From positions 1 through 20,239 of IMG/VR virus record IMGVR_UViG_2657244986_000010: a stretch of DNA of 20,239 nucleotides. The stretch is one strand, 5' to 3'. The position numbers and the translations under genes are program-made. Positions 11,529 to 20,239 of this stretch are shown in pieces. Under the pieces are notes generated by a model. The model saw only the letters and a program-made list of their open reading frames with translations, was not told the DNA's origin and searched no databases. Source of the stretch: a virus. Lineage: Duplodnaviria; Heunggongvirae; Uroviricota; Caudoviricetes. The stretch's first letter is position 1; each line of letters starts with the position of its first letter.

Positions 11529-12860
11529 ATGGCTACTTGGCAAGGAACAAACGGCGGATTGTTGGCTGGTATCGGCGGCGTCAACTCAAACGCTCCGAGC
11601 GTAAATGACATCGGCAATACGCTTCAGCTTATCAGGCAGAACAATGATATTGAGCGTTCAGGCGCTAACAATGTTGGGCTGACTGCTTTGCAAGGCCTTT
11701 CAGGTATTGCGGGGGTGTTTCAGCAGGAAAAGCAGGCTCAGCGGCAGAAAGAATTTCAGCAGGCATACGCTAATGCTTATGCGTCTGGTGATCGCGGTGC
11801 TTTGCGTCAGTTGGCTACTCAATATCCAGACCAGATTGAATCCGTTCGTAAAGGCATGGGATTCATTGATGAAGAGCAGCGTAATTCTATCGGCACCTTA
11901 GCGGCTGGCGCACGCCTTGCGTCATCGTCTCCAGAAGCAATGCAATCATGGCTGCAAAACAACGCCGGTGAGTTAGCTCGTGTTGGCGTTAATCCTCATG
12001 ACGTCGCTCAGATGTACCAACAGAACCCGCGGCAGTTCGGCGAATTTGTCGATCACCTGGGGATGAACAGTCTCGGGCCCGAAAAATACTTTGACCTACA
12101 GGATAAAATGCAGGGTCGCCAGGTTACCATGCGCGGTCAGGATCTGGATTCGCAAACCGCCGCTCGGAATCAGGCAATCACAATGCGCGGACAAGATATC
12201 CAGGCGGATTTAGGTCAGCAGCGCATTAATCTGGACGCAGAAACAAACCGCATTAACAACGAAAATAAGCGCCTTGACCGGATGCTATCAGCAGAAACTA
12301 ACGACCTGAAGCGCCAGGAAATACAGAGCCGCATAGCAGCCAACAACCAGCAGTTGCAGCAGAAGCAGCAAGCGCTAAATGATGGCTACAAAGACGGCAT
12401 CAACACCCTCACAACCAGCATGTTCACTCTGAACGATATCGTTAGTTCTCCTTCACTTAAGAGCATTACAGGCTTACGTGGAGTAATCCCCAACGTTCCA
12501 GGCTCACAGGCTGCAGACACTCAGGCACGACTTGATACCTTTAAATCACAAGCATACCTGACAGCGGTTCAGGCCATGCGAGGCATGGGCGCACTTTCTG
12601 ATGCCGAGGGCAAAAAGCTCGACCAGGCTGTTGGTTCGCTGCAGAACTCGCAGAGCGAGGAGTCCTTTCGTCGCAACGCTGGCGTCATCCTGAACACGCT
12701 CAACCAGAAGCGTAATGAGGCGGTTGGTAAGTACGTTCAGCAAAACGGTATCAAGCGAGTGGAAGCGCCTCAGGCTTCTATAGATTACCTGAAGCAGCAC
12801 CCCGAACTGTCAATCGACTTCATTAATCGCTACGGATATCTTCCATCTTTGGGGCAGTAA
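11529..12860 (+). CDS. Ejection protein (P22 gp20-like)
   Basis: 443 aa with N-terminus MATWQG..., in the syntenic position. Gln-rich with a coiled-coil-like middle region. Confidence 0.75.
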   Translation: MATWQGTNGGLLAGIGGVNSNAPSVNDIGNTLQLIRQNNDIERSGANNVGLTALQGLSGIAGVFQQEKQAQRQKEFQQAYANAYASGDRGALRQLATQYPDQIESVRKGMGFIDEEQRNSIGTLAAGARLASSSPEAMQSWLQNNAGELARVGVNPHDVAQMYQQNPRQFGEFVDHLGMNSLGPEKYFDLQDKMQGRQVTMRGQDLDSQTAARNQAITMRGQDIQADLGQQRINLDAETNRINNENKRLDRMLSAETNDLKRQEIQSRIAANNQQLQQKQQALNDGYKDGINTLTTSMFTLNDIVSSPSLKSITGLRGVIPNVPGSQAADTQARLDTFKSQAYLTAVQAMRGMGALSDAEGKKLDQAVGSLQNSQSEESFRRNAGVILNTLNQKRNEAVGKYVQQNGIKRVEAPQASIDYLKQHPELSIDFINRYGYLPSLGQ

Positions 12861-15254
12861 ATGGCTAATTACCGTGATTTGTTAGAGCAGGCTGGCGCAC
12901 GTTACGGTGTGCCAGAAGGGTTGATGACTGCACTGGGTGCCAAGGAGTCTTCTTACAACCCTGCCGCAGTAAGCTCCGCCGGGGCTGTAGGATTGACTCA
13001 GGTCATGCCTGGGACATGGCGTGATATGGGTTATACCGATGAGCAAATGCAAAACCCCGAATATCAGGCTGACGCTGGCGCGCGCTATCTGGCAAAGATG
13101 TACCAGCAGTTTGGTAACTGGCGTGACGCTCTTCAGGCTTATCACGACGGTCCCGGCAACGTTATGAAGGCAAAGCGTGGTGAATATACGCCAGGACCTG
13201 AAGGCCGCGGTTACGTTGATGATCGCTTTGCTCAATGGGCGGGTGACCCGGTGACAGACTCAACAGTCGAACAGCGCGCCACCTCTGCAAAGGTACATCC
13301 TCAGCAAGACCCTAACAACCCGTTTGCACAACTGGAAGCACAGTCATCCGAACAAGTATCGGCATCAGGCGTGCAGTCAGACCCAAATAATCCATTTGCT
13401 CAGATTGAGCAGCAGGCAGCCAGTCAGCAGCCACCTCAACCCGTAAGTTCTGTCGCACCGAAACCTGTTCAGCAGCAAGGCGGAATAATGTCTGACCTTG
13501 GTAATGGACTTGCTGAAACCGGGCGCGGCTTACTACAGGCAGGAATCAACGTAGCGAACATACCTGCTGAACTCACTGATGCTGTAACAAGCGCGGCGGC
13601 TTGGGCTGGAGGTAAACTCGGCATTGGCGATGGTACATATCAACCAGCACCACGAGTAACAACGCAGGGATTAGAGCAGGACTTTGGCCTTCAGCAAGGC
13701 GCGCTGACTCCACAAACGACAGAGGGAAGGGTATTTGCTGAAGCATTGCCTTACCTCACTCCTGCTGGCGTTGAGAGAGCGGCAACACAGGCACCAACAC
13801 TTGCTGGTCGAATTGCTCAGGGTGCAACTCGTCTTCTAGCAGAAAACGCAGTTGGATCACTTGCTGCAAACAGTGCGAAAGATGATGCGGAAGCACTCGC
13901 CACCGATTTAGGCGTTGGTGTGCTGGCTGGCGGTGCTATTAACGCTGCCGGACGTGGATTAGGTGCTGCTTATCGTGGTGTTCGTGGTTCGATAGCACCA
14001 GAAGCTCAACAGGCTATCAGGTTTGCAGAGCGTGAAGGAGTTCCTCTGCACACCACAGACCTGTTACAGCCTACTTCCCGCGTCGGGAAAATGGCGCAGA
14101 CTACAGCAGAAAATATCCCCCTGGCTGGCACAAGCGGAATGAGAGCAACGCAACAGGAAGCGAGAAGCCAGTTGGTGCAGAGATTTGCCGATAAATTCGG
14201 TGAGTATGATCCAGCGGTTGTTATTGACAGCCTTAAAGCGAAAACATCAGGAATTCGTCGTGCCGCCGGTAATCGACTGGAGCAGGTTCAGAATGCTATG
14301 GCTGGAGTAAACATTCAGCCTGCGCGAGCAATTCAGCAGATTGATACAGAAATATCTAATCTGCAGAAGCTTGGTAAGGTCGCCGATAACGAGACTATTT
14401 CAAAACTTCAGTCCTATCGTGATGAGCTTGTTCGCAATGCTGGTCCTGATGGTCCGGTAAATCTGGATTTGAAGCAATTAAGCGATCTGCGCAGCCAGTT
14501 CAGAATGGACGTGAAGGGGGAACGACCAGTGTTGCCAAACCGTTCCGATGCTGCCATTCAGCGCGTTTACAAGGCGATGACAGACGATATCAATGGTGCC
14601 ATTGGTCAGAATCTTGGCAACGATACTCTCCGTAAATATCAGCAGGCCAATGCCGTCTACGCTGACGAAGCGGCGAAACTAAAGAATACCAGGCTGAAGA
14701 ATGTTCTCATGAAAGGCGACCTGACGCCGGAAGTTGTCAACAACATGCTATTCAGCAAGAACAAATCGGAAATTAAGACGCTGTATAACTCAGTTGGTCG
14801 TGTTGGCAGGGCGCAAATGCGCAATGGCATCATTGGAAAGGCGATGGAGAAATCAGGTGGTTCCCCTGACCAGTTCCTTCGGCAGCTTAACATCCTGCAA
14901 AACCAGACTGGCATCACATTTAAGGGGCAGGACGCTGCTTATCTGAAAGGATTAAAAAACTATCTGCAATCCACGCAGCAGGCTGCAAAAGCGGCAGTAA
15001 CAACACCCACAGGGCAGCAAACTATCCCGTTCATTATTGGGTATGGGACGGCAATGAACCCGGCGACAACTGGCGCAGCAGTAAGCTACGGACTTCTTAC
15101 TCGCGCCTATGAGAGCGAGCCATTCAGAAATGCAATGCTCCGAATGGCAAACACCCCACGCGGATCAACAGCGTTTGAGAAAGCCATGCAGCAGGCACAA
15201 AAGGCAATTAACGCTCTGACGCAGGGGGCTAAGTCTGATGCGTTGTCAGAATAG
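12861..15254 (+). CDS. Ejection protein (gp16-like) with N-terminal lytic transglycosylase (SLT) domain
   Basis: 797 aa. Residues ~20-100 carry the three family-1 lytic transglycosylase motifs: catalytic E-S (GAKESSYNP, Glu codon at 12945-12947), GLTQVMP, and AYHDGPGNV. Last gene of the ejection-protein cluster. Confidence 0.8.
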   Translation: MANYRDLLEQAGARYGVPEGLMTALGAKESSYNPAAVSSAGAVGLTQVMPGTWRDMGYTDEQMQNPEYQADAGARYLAKMYQQFGNWRDALQAYHDGPGNVMKAKRGEYTPGPEGRGYVDDRFAQWAGDPVTDSTVEQRATSAKVHPQQDPNNPFAQLEAQSSEQVSASGVQSDPNNPFAQIEQQAASQQPPQPVSSVAPKPVQQQGGIMSDLGNGLAETGRGLLQAGINVANIPAELTDAVTSAAAWAGGKLGIGDGTYQPAPRVTTQGLEQDFGLQQGALTPQTTEGRVFAEALPYLTPAGVERAATQAPTLAGRIAQGATRLLAENAVGSLAANSAKDDAEALATDLGVGVLAGGAINAAGRGLGAAYRGVRGSIAPEAQQAIRFAEREGVPLHTTDLLQPTSRVGKMAQTTAENIPLAGTSGMRATQQEARSQLVQRFADKFGEYDPAVVIDSLKAKTSGIRRAAGNRLEQVQNAMAGVNIQPARAIQQIDTEISNLQKLGKVADNETISKLQSYRDELVRNAGPDGPVNLDLKQLSDLRSQFRMDVKGERPVLPNRSDAAIQRVYKAMTDDINGAIGQNLGNDTLRKYQQANAVYADEAAKLKNTRLKNVLMKGDLTPEVVNNMLFSKNKSEIKTLYNSVGRVGRAQMRNGIIGKAMEKSGGSPDQFLRQLNILQNQTGITFKGQDAAYLKGLKNYLQSTQQAAKAAVTTPTGQQTIPFIIGYGTAMNPATTGAAVSYGLLTRAYESEPFRNAMLRMANTPRGSTAFEKAMQQAQKAINALTQGAKSDALSE
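13308..13409 (+). repeat. Two diverged tandem copies of a ~24-residue DPNNPFAQ-containing motif inside the gp16-like gene
   Basis: QQDPNNPFAQLEAQ... at 13308 and QSDPNNPFAQIEQQ... at 13380, spaced 72 nt (24 codons) apart, in the Gln-rich linker after the SLT domain. Codon usage differs between the copies. Confidence 0.6.
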
Positions 15255-15343
15255 CTTTGCAAACACCAGGAAAGTGCAAAAACCAAATATGTAGAATGTA
15301 ATATTCATCATATCTCTTTGCATAAATCCTCCGTAATGGATGG

Positions 15344-15637
15344 TTAGTTGCTGTCTTTTTTATATAGCTCCTTGAGCGTATCAAAGACAATTTTCTTAAC
15401 CATATCAGATTGTTGTTCTGCCATACGCTCTGCATCGTCAATGTAAACTGATGCAGAGCTTTGTTTATCCAATGATTCTTCAATCGCTGCAATTATCTCT
15501 GAGTTCAGCGACCTGTTATTCATCTTCGCACGCTGCTTAATTTTCGCGTGGAGTTCATGCGGAAGTCTCAAGTGAAACTGCGCCTCGTCGTATTTGCTGT
15601 ACATCCTTGATGCCTCACCAGTTGGGTGGAATGGCAT
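15344..15637 (-). CDS. mnt: Mnt-like ribbon-helix-helix repressor (Arc/MetJ family)
   Basis: RHH segment FHLRLPHELHAKIKQRAKMNNRSLNSEIIAAIEESL and C-terminal DAERMAEQQSDMVKKIVFDTLKELYKK closely resemble P22 Mnt as I recall it. The true start may be the internal ATG at 15604 (GAGG 8 nt upstream), giving 86 aa. Confidence 0.8.
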   Translation of the reverse strand: MPFHPTGEASRMYSKYDEAQFHLRLPHELHAKIKQRAKMNNRSLNSEIIAAIEESLDKQSSASVYIDDAERMAEQQSDMVKKIVFDTLKELYKKDSN

Positions 15638-15725
15638 CGTAACCTACTGGATAAATACTCAATAGTACCATTTCGGTATGCAATCACATCATGGTTGCAT
15701 CATATCATTCGTCTGGAGCAATGAA

Positions 15726-17810
15726 ATGTCAGATATCACCGCAAATGTTGTGGTAAGCATGCCTTCGCAACTCTTCACTATGGCTCGTTCTTTTAAAGCG
15801 GTTGCCAATGGCAAAATTTATATCGGTAAAATTGACACTGACCCGGTAAATCCTGAAAACCAGATTCAGGTTTATGTGGAGAACGAAGACGGCTCTCACG
15901 TTCCTGTTGCACAGCCAATCATCATTAACGCTGCTGGTTACCCGGTATATAACGGACAGATTTCCAAGTTTGTAACCGTGCAAGGCCACTCTATGTCTGT
16001 TTATGATGCGTATGGTGCACAGCAGTTCTATTTTCCGAATGTGCTGAAGTATGACCCTGACCAATTAAGGCAAGAATTAGCTTCTGACAGAGGAGCAACA
16101 TTATCATTAAGTCAGATAGCTACTTCTTACGGTCTTGATTTCTCGTTAGGCGGTGTATGGCGGGAGGGGGTGTTATCTAATGTTGATAACTGGTGGTGGT
16201 ATAATAATAAAATCTACACCGGTGGTAGCGGAAATCTGCCATCTATCCCATCAGCACCGTGGTATCCAATTCGCCCGGGATACAAATTAAACTTAACAGA
16301 CTTTATTACCTCCAAGGGTGTGAGCGATATTCTTGACGTAGTGGACTGGCAATGGGCTTTCGATAGCGCGAAGCTCAATGCTTCTCACACATCAATGCTT
16401 GACATGGACGCACGCGAATACACTATGAATTCCACTGGTTACATAGCGCCACAGGGTGTTGGTCTTCGCGGTCCGAAAGATGCAATGATGAACCCGTCTT
16501 TAGATGGTATAGCTGTTATATATGTCAATAAAGAGCCATCATCAAACGATGTGTTTGTGACAATGCAAGGTGGAAACGCATTTGAAAATTTCGGTATATT
16601 CTTTGCTCAGCAAATCTACACCACACTGGCCTCAGCGTTAGATACTGGGACGATGTTCAAACGCGTACCTGCAACTGGAGCTGGTGATGAAATTATGACA
16701 AAAGCATGCATATTAAAGGGGGTTAGCGCGTGTGGGGTTGCAAAACTTTGGAGTGGAAGCCTTGATGACAATGCGACAGGTGAATACGATGAGATAATTC
16801 GCGTTTCTGCCACGCCAAACAAATTTGGGCCTACATTTCGGTATGGTATTAGCACTGATTTTCTGCGCACAAAAACAGTTCATATTAATGCTAATGTTGT
16901 TAGCGCGTATCGAGCTAGATATGGAGTTGATTTTACGGTAAGAGCGCTAACCAGCGACAATACATCAGCCATAGGATTCCTTATTGAGCGCATGGATGGT
17001 GGTCTATTCGAGGATATCCTGACATATGGTGTTCCATTCTCGGTTGTTTTTGGTGCTGTTGGCGGGTCTGGCGGGGTTAACTCAGGTAGTGCAAACTTCG
17101 TATCATGTGGCTTTGACGCAACCTGTTTTCCTATCTACATTAACGCCCCTACAGGAGCATTTGGTATTTCTTTCTCTAACTGCCAGGCTGTCTTCGATGA
17201 GCAGTATGGTGACACGTCCGGAGCTCTGGTTTATTTGGGCGCAGGAGCTTCCTCACATCAGATAATGCTTAGCAATATCAAGGTGCAGAAGTCAGCAAGT
17301 TTCAATTATCGACCAGTAAGGGCTGTTTCTGGAAGTGCGGATAACAGGGTGACAATTTCAACCAGTGCGTTAACAGCCAGTCAAGACGTTCTTGATGAGG
17401 GAACCAGTAATCGCATAAGCATTATTGGATCAACAAGAAACCTCGGCGGCCTTAATATGATGACTAATACTACGGCAGAATCATCGCTGGTGTCATCAAT
17501 GGGGGAGTTGAATACAGTAGTAAGAAAGCAGTTATCAGTACCAATTCAAGCCGGCTCTTCATTTGTCAATTTGACAGTAACGTATCCATATACTGGTTGG
17601 CTTGCAACTCCTAATGTGATAACAGAGCTTGTCGGTGTGGCAATTCCTGGTCAACCAGATTCAACTCTTTACGACGTAAGAACGTTTTCTCGGACAGAAA
17701 ATGGGTGCGTACTTAGATGCACCTTGAGCTCAGCAGCGACTGGTAACGGTAACCTTATAGTTGACATATATGTTGTCGGTACGGTTCGGGGAACGCTCAA
17801 AGCGGTTTAG
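15726..17810 (+). CDS. Tailspike protein (conserved head-binding domain, divergent receptor-binding domain)
   Basis: Residues 1-113 ([11 protein letters not shown]...[21 protein letters not shown]...NVLKYDPDQ) match the conserved P22/Sf6/HK620 tailspike head-binding domain. GGAG Shine-Dalgarno 8 nt upstream of the ATG at 15726. The track's 15678 start adds 16 unsupported residues. Confidence 0.9.
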
Positions 17811-17830
17811 TATTGTTTATAAGCCAACTC

Positions 17831-17870
17831 GCAACTATCATGCGCATAAGAACAATGGCTTGATAGTTGC
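17831..17870. repeat. 10-bp perfect inverted repeat (GCAACTATCA ... TGATAGTTGC) with 20-bp spacer, between tailspike and acyltransferase
   Basis: Read directly from the sequence at 17831-17840 and 17861-17870. Overlaps a candidate -10 hexamer TATCAT (17836-17841) with TTGTTT 17 bp upstream. Confidence 0.5.
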
Positions 17871-17886
17871 TTGATTAGGGGGAATA

Positions 17887-19002
17887 GTGAGCAAAAACAG
17901 GTTGCATGGATTAGATGCGTGGAGAGGTGTTGCTGCGATAATGGTTGCAATTTACCATTTTAACGTTAATTCGTTTATGCATGAATTAACGATAGTTAAA
18001 AACTCATGGTTATTCGTTGAGTTTTTTTTCGTGCTAAGCGGATTTATCATGATGTATAATTATTCAGATAGAATTAATAATCGTGAGCAGCTACTTTCTT
18101 TTTTATTTAAGCGTTTTTCAAGGATTTGGCCTCTTCATATATTTGTTCTTTTTTTATTTGTGCCTGTAGCTATTGCTGGATATGTAATCGGTAATATTGA
18201 TCCGTCTCGTTTTTCTGTTGCATCATTTATAAGTAATGTATTTCTTATCCAATCGTTAGGTGTGAATGATGGCGTGACATGGAACTCTCCATCGTGGAGT
18301 ATTAGCTCAGAGTTTTTTGTTTACGTTGCGTTTGGCCTTATCACACTAACCTTTACTAAAGGGTGGTGTCGTTTTATTATTCCGTCTTTGATTTGCTTTG
18401 TTATTTTGACTAATTTTTCGAATATGGGTGATGCATACAAGCTGGCCTTCTTTAGGTGTGGTTATTCTTTTTTTATTGGGTGTGTAGTATATTATTTGTA
18501 TAAATCAAAATCATTAAAATCTGGTACATGGTTAGAAATCCTATCGGTGGTTGCTGTTGTATTAACAATGTCATTATTTTTAATCAAAGGTAATGATTTG
18601 ATTGCATATTGCATGCCTTTTTTATTCTGTGCCATTGTTTTCTCGTTTGCTCGCGGGGATGGTGTAATTAGTAAAGCAATGGGAAATAATCTTTTTATAA
18701 AGATGGGTGAGGTTTCTTACTCTATATATATGACGCATGCATTTGTTGCTATTTGTATAAAAAGCTTGTTGCTTTTATTTGGAAAGTTTATTAACCACAA
18801 TTTTTTGGTTAAAATTGGTAACGAAACGCAAGTTAATCTAGGGGGAGTTCTAGCGAATAACTTATTGGATATAGTATTTTTGGTATTGGTCATATCTTTT
18901 TCAATGTTGACATATCGATATGTTGAGTCGCCATGTCAAAGAATACTCAATGCATGGTATAAAAATAAAAAGATGGTTGAGACATCAAATTTGGTTATGT
19001 GA
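17887..19002 (+). CDS. Acyltransferase-3 family integral membrane protein (O-antigen acetyltransferase-like conversion gene)
   Basis: GTG start at 17887 with an AGGGGGA Shine-Dalgarno upstream. N-terminal LDAWRGVAAIMVAIYH and internal WSISSEFFVY motifs typical of acyltransferase_3, with multiple hydrophobic helices. Visibly AT-rich relative to the structural genes. Confidence 0.85.
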   Translation: MSKNRLHGLDAWRGVAAIMVAIYHFNVNSFMHELTIVKNSWLFVEFFFVLSGFIMMYNYSDRINNREQLLSFLFKRFSRIWPLHIFVLFLFVPVAIAGYVIGNIDPSRFSVASFISNVFLIQSLGVNDGVTWNSPSWSISSEFFVYVAFGLITLTFTKGWCRFIIPSLICFVILTNFSNMGDAYKLAFFRCGYSFFIGCVVYYLYKSKSLKSGTWLEILSVVAVVLTMSLFLIKGNDLIAYCMPFLFCAIVFSFARGDGVISKAMGNNLFIKMGEVSYSIYMTHAFVAICIKSLLLLFGKFINHNFLVKIGNETQVNLGGVLANNLLDIVFLVLVISFSMLTYRYVESPCQRILNAWYKNKKMVETSNLVM

Positions 19003-19018
19003 TTGGACTTTCTATACA

Positions 19019-19054
19019 AAGTCTTGCGCCAGATAGCAAGGCTTTGTGTTTTAC
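19019..19054 (+). terminator. Putative intrinsic terminator downstream of the acyltransferase gene
   Basis: AAAGTCTTGC / GCAAGGCTTT 10-bp stem (one G-U wobble) with an 8-nt loop, followed by GTGTTTTA, 17 nt after the acyltransferase stop. Confidence 0.45.
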
Positions 19055-19081
19055 GAATGATGAAGTTCACTCCTTACATAT

Positions 19082-20239
19082 TCAAGCATACTTTTCGTCA
19101 AGCCAATCTGCCCACCACTGCATCATTTCTCTGCGTTTATCGAGATACTGAGCATGGTTGTAAATCCCACGCACAGATCCGCCGTTGGCATGTGCCAGTT
19201 GCACTTCAATAGCATCAGCAGGCCATTCGTGCTCGTTCGTAATCGTGCTGAATTCATGCCTGAATCCGTGACCGCTTTCCAGACCTTCATAGCCGATTTG
19301 TTTGATCACAAGCAGTACAGCGTTCTCGCAAATTGGCTTCTTCTTATCGTTGCGCCCGGCAAAAACAAACTCTGATACTGGTTTGGTGATTGAGCTTAGC
19401 GTAGTGAGAAGTTCAACCACCTGGTCTGACATAGGAACCACATGAATTTTGCGTCCCTTCATCACACTGGCGTCGATGGTGATAATCCTGTTTTCAAAAT
19501 CGACGTTCTTCCATAGCATGGAACGAAGCTCTTTCGTTCTTAGGGCTGTGTAGCGTAAAACTTTGGTCGCAATGAGCGATACGATGCTTCCTGAAAATGT
19601 TGCCAGTGCTTTGTTGAATGCCGGGATCTGGTCTGCAGGAAGAAACGGGAAGTTCTTCTTGCGGTATCCCTTCATGGCGTCAGCAAGGTCAGGTGCCGGG
19701 TTATATTTAGCCCTGCCGGTGACAATAGCGTAACGGAAAACCTCGCCGCATCTTCTGCGTGCTTTGTTGGCTCGCTCCATTGCACCGCGATCTTCAAATC
19801 TGCGGATTACTTCCAGCAGTTGCATCGGCTCAATATCCTGAATCTCAAGACCGCCGATGATGGGTAAAATGTCGTCATCAAACATTTTGGCAAGTTCAGT
19901 TGCATAGCCTACTGACCAGACTTGCTTCTTGTGCTCGTACCATTCCTTGTAAATCGCACTAAATGAATTGTTGTTAGACGAAGCCTTTTTCGCCTTTACC
20001 GGATCGATGCCAACCGAGATGTCTTTCCTCGCAGTCCATGCCTTATCCCTTGCTTCCTGCAAAGTCATAAGCGGATATTTTCCGACGGTCAGGATTTTCT
20101 CCTTACCGTCAATCTTGTAGCGAAGCTGCCATACCTTTTTCCCGGATACAGGAACATAAAGGTACAGGCCATTACCATCGAGAAGGCGGTATGGTTTTTC
20201 TTTCGGCTTTGCTGCTTCAATCTGCTTAACGGTGAGCAT
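19082..20239 (-). CDS. int: Tyrosine recombinase / phage integrase (P4/P22-type with N-terminal arm-binding domain)
   Basis: 385 aa. N-terminal MLTVKQIEAAKP...YRLLDGNGLYLYV...WQLRY arm-type domain. C-terminal catalytic region with R, HGFRH and a Tyr in GIYNHAQY. Start codon is the reverse complement of the last 3 bases of the window. Confidence 0.92.
   Translation of the reverse strand: MLTVKQIEAAKPKEKPYRLLDGNGLYLYVPVSGKKVWQLRYKIDGKEKILTVGKYPLMTLQEARDKAWTARKDISVGIDPVKAKKASSNNNSFSAIYKEWYEHKKQVWSVGYATELAKMFDDDILPIIGGLEIQDIEPMQLLEVIRRFEDRGAMERANKARRRCGEVFRYAIVTGRAKYNPAPDLADAMKGYRKKNFPFLPADQIPAFNKALATFSGSIVSLIATKVLRYTALRTKELRSMLWKNVDFENRIITIDASVMKGRKIHVVPMSDQVVELLTTLSSITKPVSEFVFAGRNDKKKPICENAVLLVIKQIGYEGLESGHGFRHEFSTITNEHEWPADAIEVQLAHANGGSVRGIYNHAQYLDKRREMMQWWADWLDEKYA

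Follow-up and report, generated by a model that had tools for sequence, protein, structure and literature searches.

A P22-like tailspike with a rare receptor-binding domain and predicted specificity for Escherichia coli O141

The tailspike considered here, encoded within a stretch of viral DNA of 20,239 bases (the window, from now on), represents a receptor-domain subtype that is rare and whose predicted specificity, for the O141 antigen of E. coli, is well supported. Its anchor domain, the position of its gene and its predicted fold place it in the P22-like family. The explanation that we regard, as a whole, as likely is that of a putative O141-specific tailspike depolymerase, accompanied by a putative O-antigen acetylase that would bring about lysogenic conversion; the spike belongs to an intact P22-like (Lederbergvirus-type) prophage, inserted at argW in the genome of an E. 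coli O141 strain. Nothing in it is conceptually new, the P22/Sf6 paradigm being extended to another serogroup, and the interest of the finding is mainly practical.

The whole window is 100% identical to positions 1413005-1433243 of E. coli ST12468 (NZ_CP103694.1), where, according to the annotation, a P22-like prophage is present in complete form and the window makes up its right half. This prophage contains P22-like lysis and packaging genes; its gene order runs from terminase, portal, scaffold, P22-type capsid, gp4, gp10, tail needle and ejection proteins to an SLT-domain ejection protein, Mnt, the tailspike, an acyltransferase, IntS, tRNA-Arg (argW) and yfdC. The integrase, annotated as intS, adjoins tRNA-Arg and yfdC. 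The tailspike gene thus sits between immI (mnt), itself preceded by the ejection proteins, and int, as in a P22-like module, and its exact product is already known as RefSeq WP_058905873.1, a 'phage head-binding domain-containing protein'. The relevant features of the window are the following:

12861-15254: last ejection protein, 797 aa, with an N-terminal SLT lytic transglycosylase domain (PF01464, E=3e-25)
15344-15637, minus strand: Mnt/Arc-family repressor (PF03869 Arc, E=1e-14; PF11423 Repressor_Mnt, E=3e-14), directly upstream of the tailspike
15726-17810, plus strand: tailspike, 694 aa, intact ORF
16085-19090, plus strand: cassette exchanged relative to phage IME10, comprising receptor domain and acyltransferase
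17887-19002, plus strand: acyltransferase-3 membrane protein, putative O-antigen O-acetyltransferase (PF01757, E=5e-22; PHROG 3333 'O-acetyltransferase', E=5e-50)
19082-20239, minus strand: IntS-type integrase (argW site), 96-97% identical to IME10 and Sf6 int, the right conserved flank

A preliminary description of the window had proposed a tailspike of about 694 aa, in which a head-binding domain of the P22-family pattern (residues 1-113) is fused to a divergent receptor part. Length, pattern and mosaic nature are all borne out, the latter by Pfam, tblastn and PDB matches alike. The boundary between the two parts had been placed correctly at the NVLKYDPDQ motif, which occupies residues 105-113; since, however, the motif ends at nt 16064, the receptor part starts at 16065, one base earlier than the 16066 originally given. 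As judged from the sequence, the mosaic is composed of four modules, not two, its distinctive sequence starting near residue 182. The parts of the protein, including a linker, are listed below:

15726-16064, plus strand: residues 1-113, P22-type head-binding (virion-anchoring) domain (PF09008, E=1e-66, full model length)
16065-16268, plus strand: residues 114-181, neck ([45 protein letters not shown]), conserved across relatives
16269-17447, plus strand: residues 182-574, receptor-binding, putatively catalytic, right-handed parallel beta-helix of the predicted structure
17448-17501, plus strand: residues 575-592, linker between beta-helix and C-terminal domain (model residues 461-479, pLDDT below 50)
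17502-17810, plus strand: residues 593-694 and stop codon, all-beta C-terminal domain with seven strands (model residues 481-580)

The head-binding domain is 88-93% identical to those of IME10, HK620 and Sf101 by tblastn, and its matches in the PDB, Sf6 gp14 (7sg7, E=6e-64) and P22 gp9, involve residues 1-122 only. The divergence of the downstream part, as originally described, is confirmed by a tblastn search of 50,697 phage genomes, in which similarity covers residues 1 to about 120-200 only: residues 1-124 are matched by IME10 (at 93%) and by HK620, residues 1-130 by Sf6 (80% identity), and P22 types reach up to residue 168. When residues 124-694 alone were compared with the same genomes, a 39-aa match in the neck was the only one obtained. 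Similarly, PDB sequences gave no match beyond residue 122 and Pfam and NCBIfam none beyond residue 113, where PHROG contains no informative family either; PHROG 7173, 'tail spike', matches the neck part only. No full-length identity to a characterised tailspike was found in these searches.

A receptor domain of the P22 or HK620 type was considered and discarded, as similarity stops at residue 120 and 124, respectively, and no HK620-type homology was found beyond the head-binding domain. The resemblance in length to HK620 gp9 (710 aa), pointed out in the preliminary description, is therefore a coincidence. Sequence homology to the Sf6-type beta-helix, including its catalytic Glu/Asp pair, was likewise not detected: profile comparison by hhalign aligned the head-binding domain only and, because the receptor domain is left unaligned, catalytic residues cannot be transferred from Sf6.

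The receptor-domain family, as sampled by sequence searches, is a tiny one. In a large protein database, 29 relatives of residues 124-694 were found, a 66%-identical type being P0006, and an exhaustive HMMER scan of 1.84 billion cluster representatives with residues 182-694 selected just 12 proteins. An alignment of relatives shows conservation from end to end, C-terminal domain included.

The predicted monomer structure contains, in the receptor part, the central right-handed parallel beta-helix that the preliminary description had suggested looking for. Its best structural match by Foldseek is the Sf6 tailspike (4urr_B), with 12-13% identity in the structural alignment. The linker is the sole long stretch of low confidence in the model; pLDDT is mostly about 76-93 in the C-terminal domain, falling to 68 at the last few residues. 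The C-terminal beta domain, with which the spike ends, probably stabilises the presumed trimer.

The predicted fold is that of the PF12708 pectate-lyase-3/RHGA-like tailspike depolymerases, although the protein remains below Pfam thresholds after residue 113 and the PF12708 model itself does not reach its gathering threshold. Five distant ones among the 12 proteins of the HMMER scan, four of them at 27-29% identity and the fifth (P0030) at 34%, were also compared with Pfam: three of the former four carry PF12708 (P0033, P0034 and P0036), one of them together with an H-type lectin domain, while P0030 has no match.

Relatives of 44-71% identity all share three aspartates in the central part of the helix, D424, D430 and D464, which are candidate catalytic residues. 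The distance between D424/D430 and D464, 34-40 residues, corresponds roughly to one to two coils of the helix, and catalytic pairs are spaced in a similar way in the P22, Sf6 and HK620 tailspikes. The domain might, in principle, bind the O-antigen with no endoglycosidase action, being a non-catalytic adhesin, a lyase or some other glycan-modifying enzyme. We deem this unlikely, in view of the three invariant aspartates, of the presence of PF12708 in distant relatives, and of the fact that most beta-helix tailspikes of such architecture are depolymerases.

Between anchor and beta-helix lies the neck, about 65 aa long, which is kept behind four different N-terminal anchors: PF09008 (P22 head-binding), PF18668 (Tail_spike_N), PF12571 (tail-collar fibre) and PF03906 (T7 fibre). 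In BLASTP comparisons it also precedes unrelated beta-helices, as in P0023, 86% identical up to about residue 181, and in P0027, where the neck is 68% identical. Similarity at the DNA level also ends inside it, at 16084 (residue 120) with IME10 and at 16243 (residue 173) with the tailspike of strain ETEC1716. For all these reasons we regard the neck as the recombination junction. A set of short matches (P0020-P0029), initially taken for a shared C-terminal module, turned out by BLASTP to correspond to the neck (residues 117-181).

The receptor domain itself is found, at 47-77% identity, behind the same set of anchors (PF18668, PF12571, PF03906 and PF09008). One homologue, from Enterobacter hormaechei (P0003, 77% identical), has a PF18668 anchor and ends a tail module which includes a Big_2 protein, a 974-aa protein and an NlpC/P60 protein (L008, 1-10121); since this is a tail of non-P22 type, the receptor domain crosses phage morphotypes. 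In a P22-like prophage of E. fergusonii, a spike with a receptor domain 57% identical (P0012) is followed by gtrC-, gtrB- (GT2) and gtrA-like genes (L009, 10142-12926), so that here too a spike is coupled with a modifier of the O-antigen, though from a different modification system.

The closest sequenced backbone is that of IME10, a Lederbergvirus, with 96-97% DNA identity in ejection protein, mnt, head-binding domain and integrase. By blastn, IME10 matches the window at 12661-16084 (96.8%) and 19091-20239 (96.4%), with nothing in between, and the Sf6 match restarts at the same right-hand point, 19091. The breaks in similarity at 16084 and 19091 show that receptor domain and acyltransferase were swapped as one cassette, the interval 16085-19090 being occupied in IME10 by unrelated sequence. 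There is no fall in GC at the left junction. The lower GC that the preliminary description had noted in places of the receptor part was not confirmed, values being 0.442 for the head-binding and 0.448 for the receptor part; GC stays at 0.44-0.45 across the whole tailspike gene, and the drop, to 0.331, belongs to the acyltransferase.

A PF01757 acyltransferase encoded between tailspike and int is what would be expected of an Oac-like gene. The protein shares 25% of its residues with Sf6 Oac, and nothing in the phage collection is more than 31% identical to it. Besides the window copy, the gene is present at 4430-5545 of L002, 5430-6545 of L006 and 5431-6546 of L007.

The link to O141 comes from the host genomes. 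The rfb cluster of ST12468 is annotated with O141 wzx and wzy, along with rmlBDAC and manCB. O141 wzy is found in 14 of 5,426 complete E. coli genomes, and these 14, all complete, are the basis of the association: DNA of the receptor domain beyond the neck was detected in 12 of the 5,426, as three full-length copies at 100% identity and nine 3'-end remnants, and all 12 carriers are among the 14 O141 genomes. The acyltransferase gene occurs in the same 12 genomes, all O141, and nowhere else. Restriction to hosts with O141 wzx/wzy is complete (12 carriers out of 12), and 12 of the 14 O141 genomes are carriers; matches in two non-O141 strains, UMNF18 and ET245, are confined to the neck. The corresponding hypergeometric probabilities are about 7e-35 for the 12 genomes and 1.4e-8 for the three full-length copies alone, figures which overstate independence, as some strains are related, the swine ETEC are probably clonal and one strain is present twice. 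The distinct polysaccharide which, in the preliminary description, the phage would probably recognise can in this way be narrowed down, the receptor domain being confined to O141 hosts.

The spike of a prophage need not match its present host, and this counts against an O141 specificity. A lineage effect could also be involved: the spike might recognise some other glycan, such as a K antigen or an exopolysaccharide, travelling with O141 lineages. There are only 14 O141 genomes, several of them from related swine ETEC, and many beta-helix spikes of the same fold are capsule depolymerases. Carriers, however, come from human blood in the USA, a human source in Japan, a UPEC in Mexico, chicken meat in Laos and swine ETEC in Belgium, i.e. 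from diverse hosts in five countries, and the cassette is found at two chromosomal loci, argW and ybhB/bioA. ST12468 keeps the colanic-acid gene wcaM beside galF, an arrangement which argues against a group 1 capsule locus. Moreover, the genes paired with the spike, an Oac-like acyltransferase here and gtr-like genes in E. fergusonii, are classic O-antigen modifiers, and characterised P22-like spikes mostly target the O-antigen, the known exception being CUS-3, directed to the K1 capsule. We consider recognition of another glycan very unlikely, and O141 remains the preferred target.

In the 12 O141 genomes which carry it, the acyltransferase is kept at an identity of at least 99.5%; the ETEC4090 copy is interrupted by IS1. 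MB51 and VG48B2 are examples of O141 strains without the gene. Nine genomes have the prophage reduced to the last 353 nt of the tailspike gene plus the acyltransferase. These remnants are located at argW in UPEC-245U and at ybhB/bioA in ETEC1716 and EM20-18-50, and their cut point corresponds to window position 17458 in eight cases out of nine, that of ETEC4073 starting at 17490. The 353-nt matches had been regarded as a possible C-terminal module of other proteins; they belong, in fact, to truncated copies of the tailspike gene that remain linked to the acyltransferase gene. Their persistence suggests selection for the conversion gene, and they possibly derive from a single truncation event that later moved.

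Such remnants raise the question of whether the tailspike gene is itself decaying within a defective prophage, as a relic without function. Of the three full copies, one is indeed broken: in strain 2017.04.03CC (NZ_AP025205.2, 1416075-1419080) an otherwise identical gene is split by an IS3-family insertion, with a product of 594 aa (P0002), and the nine genomes just described hold its 3' end only. The ORF of the window is, on the contrary, intact and preceded by a good ribosome-binding site, and around it the P22-like genes for lysis, packaging, head, tail needle and ejection form a complete series, the integrase being intact as well; the tailspike is 100% identical in three genomes and its family is conserved over the full length. 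That the gene is a relic seems to us extremely unlikely, and we continue to treat it as part of an intact prophage.

A second P22-like spike, WP_096937520.1 (P0023), features the same head-binding domain and neck, followed by an unrelated PF12708 beta-helix. It is found in seven genomes, five of which are O141, the other two being UMNF18 and ET245; examples lie at 343-2340 of L002 (NZ_CP122880.1) and at about 1850021-1851461 of NZ_CP103694.1. ST12468 has this type of spike too, and therefore harbors two P22-like prophages with different spikes in one host.

On the model of P22, Sf6 and HK620, the head-binding domain would dock the spike, presumably a trimer, onto the tail hub. The beta-helix would most likely bind and cleave the O141 O-polysaccharide, so that the virion works its way down to the outer membrane. 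Receptor domain and acyltransferase arrived as one cassette, with the left crossover in the neck and the right one at the 3' end of int. In the lysogen, the acyltransferase would most likely O-acetylate the O141 antigen, blocking re-adsorption by phages whose spike is of this kind, in the manner of Oac in Sf6. A bolder version, towards which we lean slightly less than against it, sees in the locus a dedicated O141 module: with its spike, an O141-specific depolymerase would become known for the first time, the acyltransferase would be a near-fixed, phage-borne determinant of the displayed antigen, and the P0023 spike would perhaps be adapted to the acetylated form.

Sf6 is among the closest known systems. 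Its gp14, an endorhamnosidase, shares the head-binding domain, and its neighborhood features the same succession of ejection proteins, tailspike, O-antigen acyltransferase, intS and an argW-type att site. The Sf6 receptor domain, in contrast, has no detectable sequence similarity to the one described here, its spike is shorter (623 aa versus 694 aa), Oac is encoded on the opposite strand relative to the acyltransferase of the window, and the host antigen is that of S. flexneri Y rather than E. coli O141. P22 gp9 and HK620 gp9 differ in that similarity ends at residue 120-124.

O141 is a major serogroup among the E. coli of porcine post-weaning diarrhoea and oedema disease, including enterotoxigenic strains. 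The O141 structure was reportedly published by Farnback et al. in 1998. No paper linking any tailspike to O141 was found in the searchable literature.

O-serogroup-specific subtypes of receptor-binding proteins (RBPs) of E. coli phages have been described by Pas et al. (2023; PMC10408124) for 14 serogroups (O26, O45, O103, O104, O111, O145, O157, O2, O8, O16, O18, 4s/O22, O77 and O78), with Lederbergviruses highlighted. In their scheme an anchor and a conserved junction are followed by an exchangeable receptor domain, and, through horizontal transfers, subtype and host O-serogroup stay associated. The present tailspike conforms to this principle, while O141 lies outside the catalogue, the largest published for E. 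coli serogroup-specific RBPs, being absent from its text and from the supplements examined. Phage host range is determined by the receptor domains of tailspikes, which also find use as serogroup-specific probes and as depolymerases; the O141 spike, if validated, would be a ready reagent to type or target O141 strains. The locus is also a clean example of a conserved neck serving as crossover point for swaps of receptor domains between unrelated tail types, of a spike domain co-transferred with a gene modifying its receptor, and of the retention of the modifying gene after prophage decay.

Some minor features of the region may be mentioned. The ATG at 15726, with a GGAG 7 nt upstream, is the start of the tailspike and agrees with the RefSeq start on the identical prophage; a start at 15678, taken from a mechanical list of ORFs, was discarded, not being the one annotated in RefSeq. 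The corresponding stretch, 15678-15725, adds 16 codons before the start and looks like a non-coding artefact, as does an antisense ORF of 111 aa (15729-16064) over the head-binding region. The DNA of the ejection protein gene is 97% identical to its IME10 homologue. A scan for promoters and terminators at the acyltransferase gave counts at chance level, with one weak -35/-10 match (17860-17888) overlapping the start codon of the gene. The Mnt/Arc repressor occupies the position of P22 immI, a region which holds here a Mnt-like gene only, with no arc or ant before the tailspike; in the related prophage of ETEC1716, Ant lies directly upstream of the tailspike.
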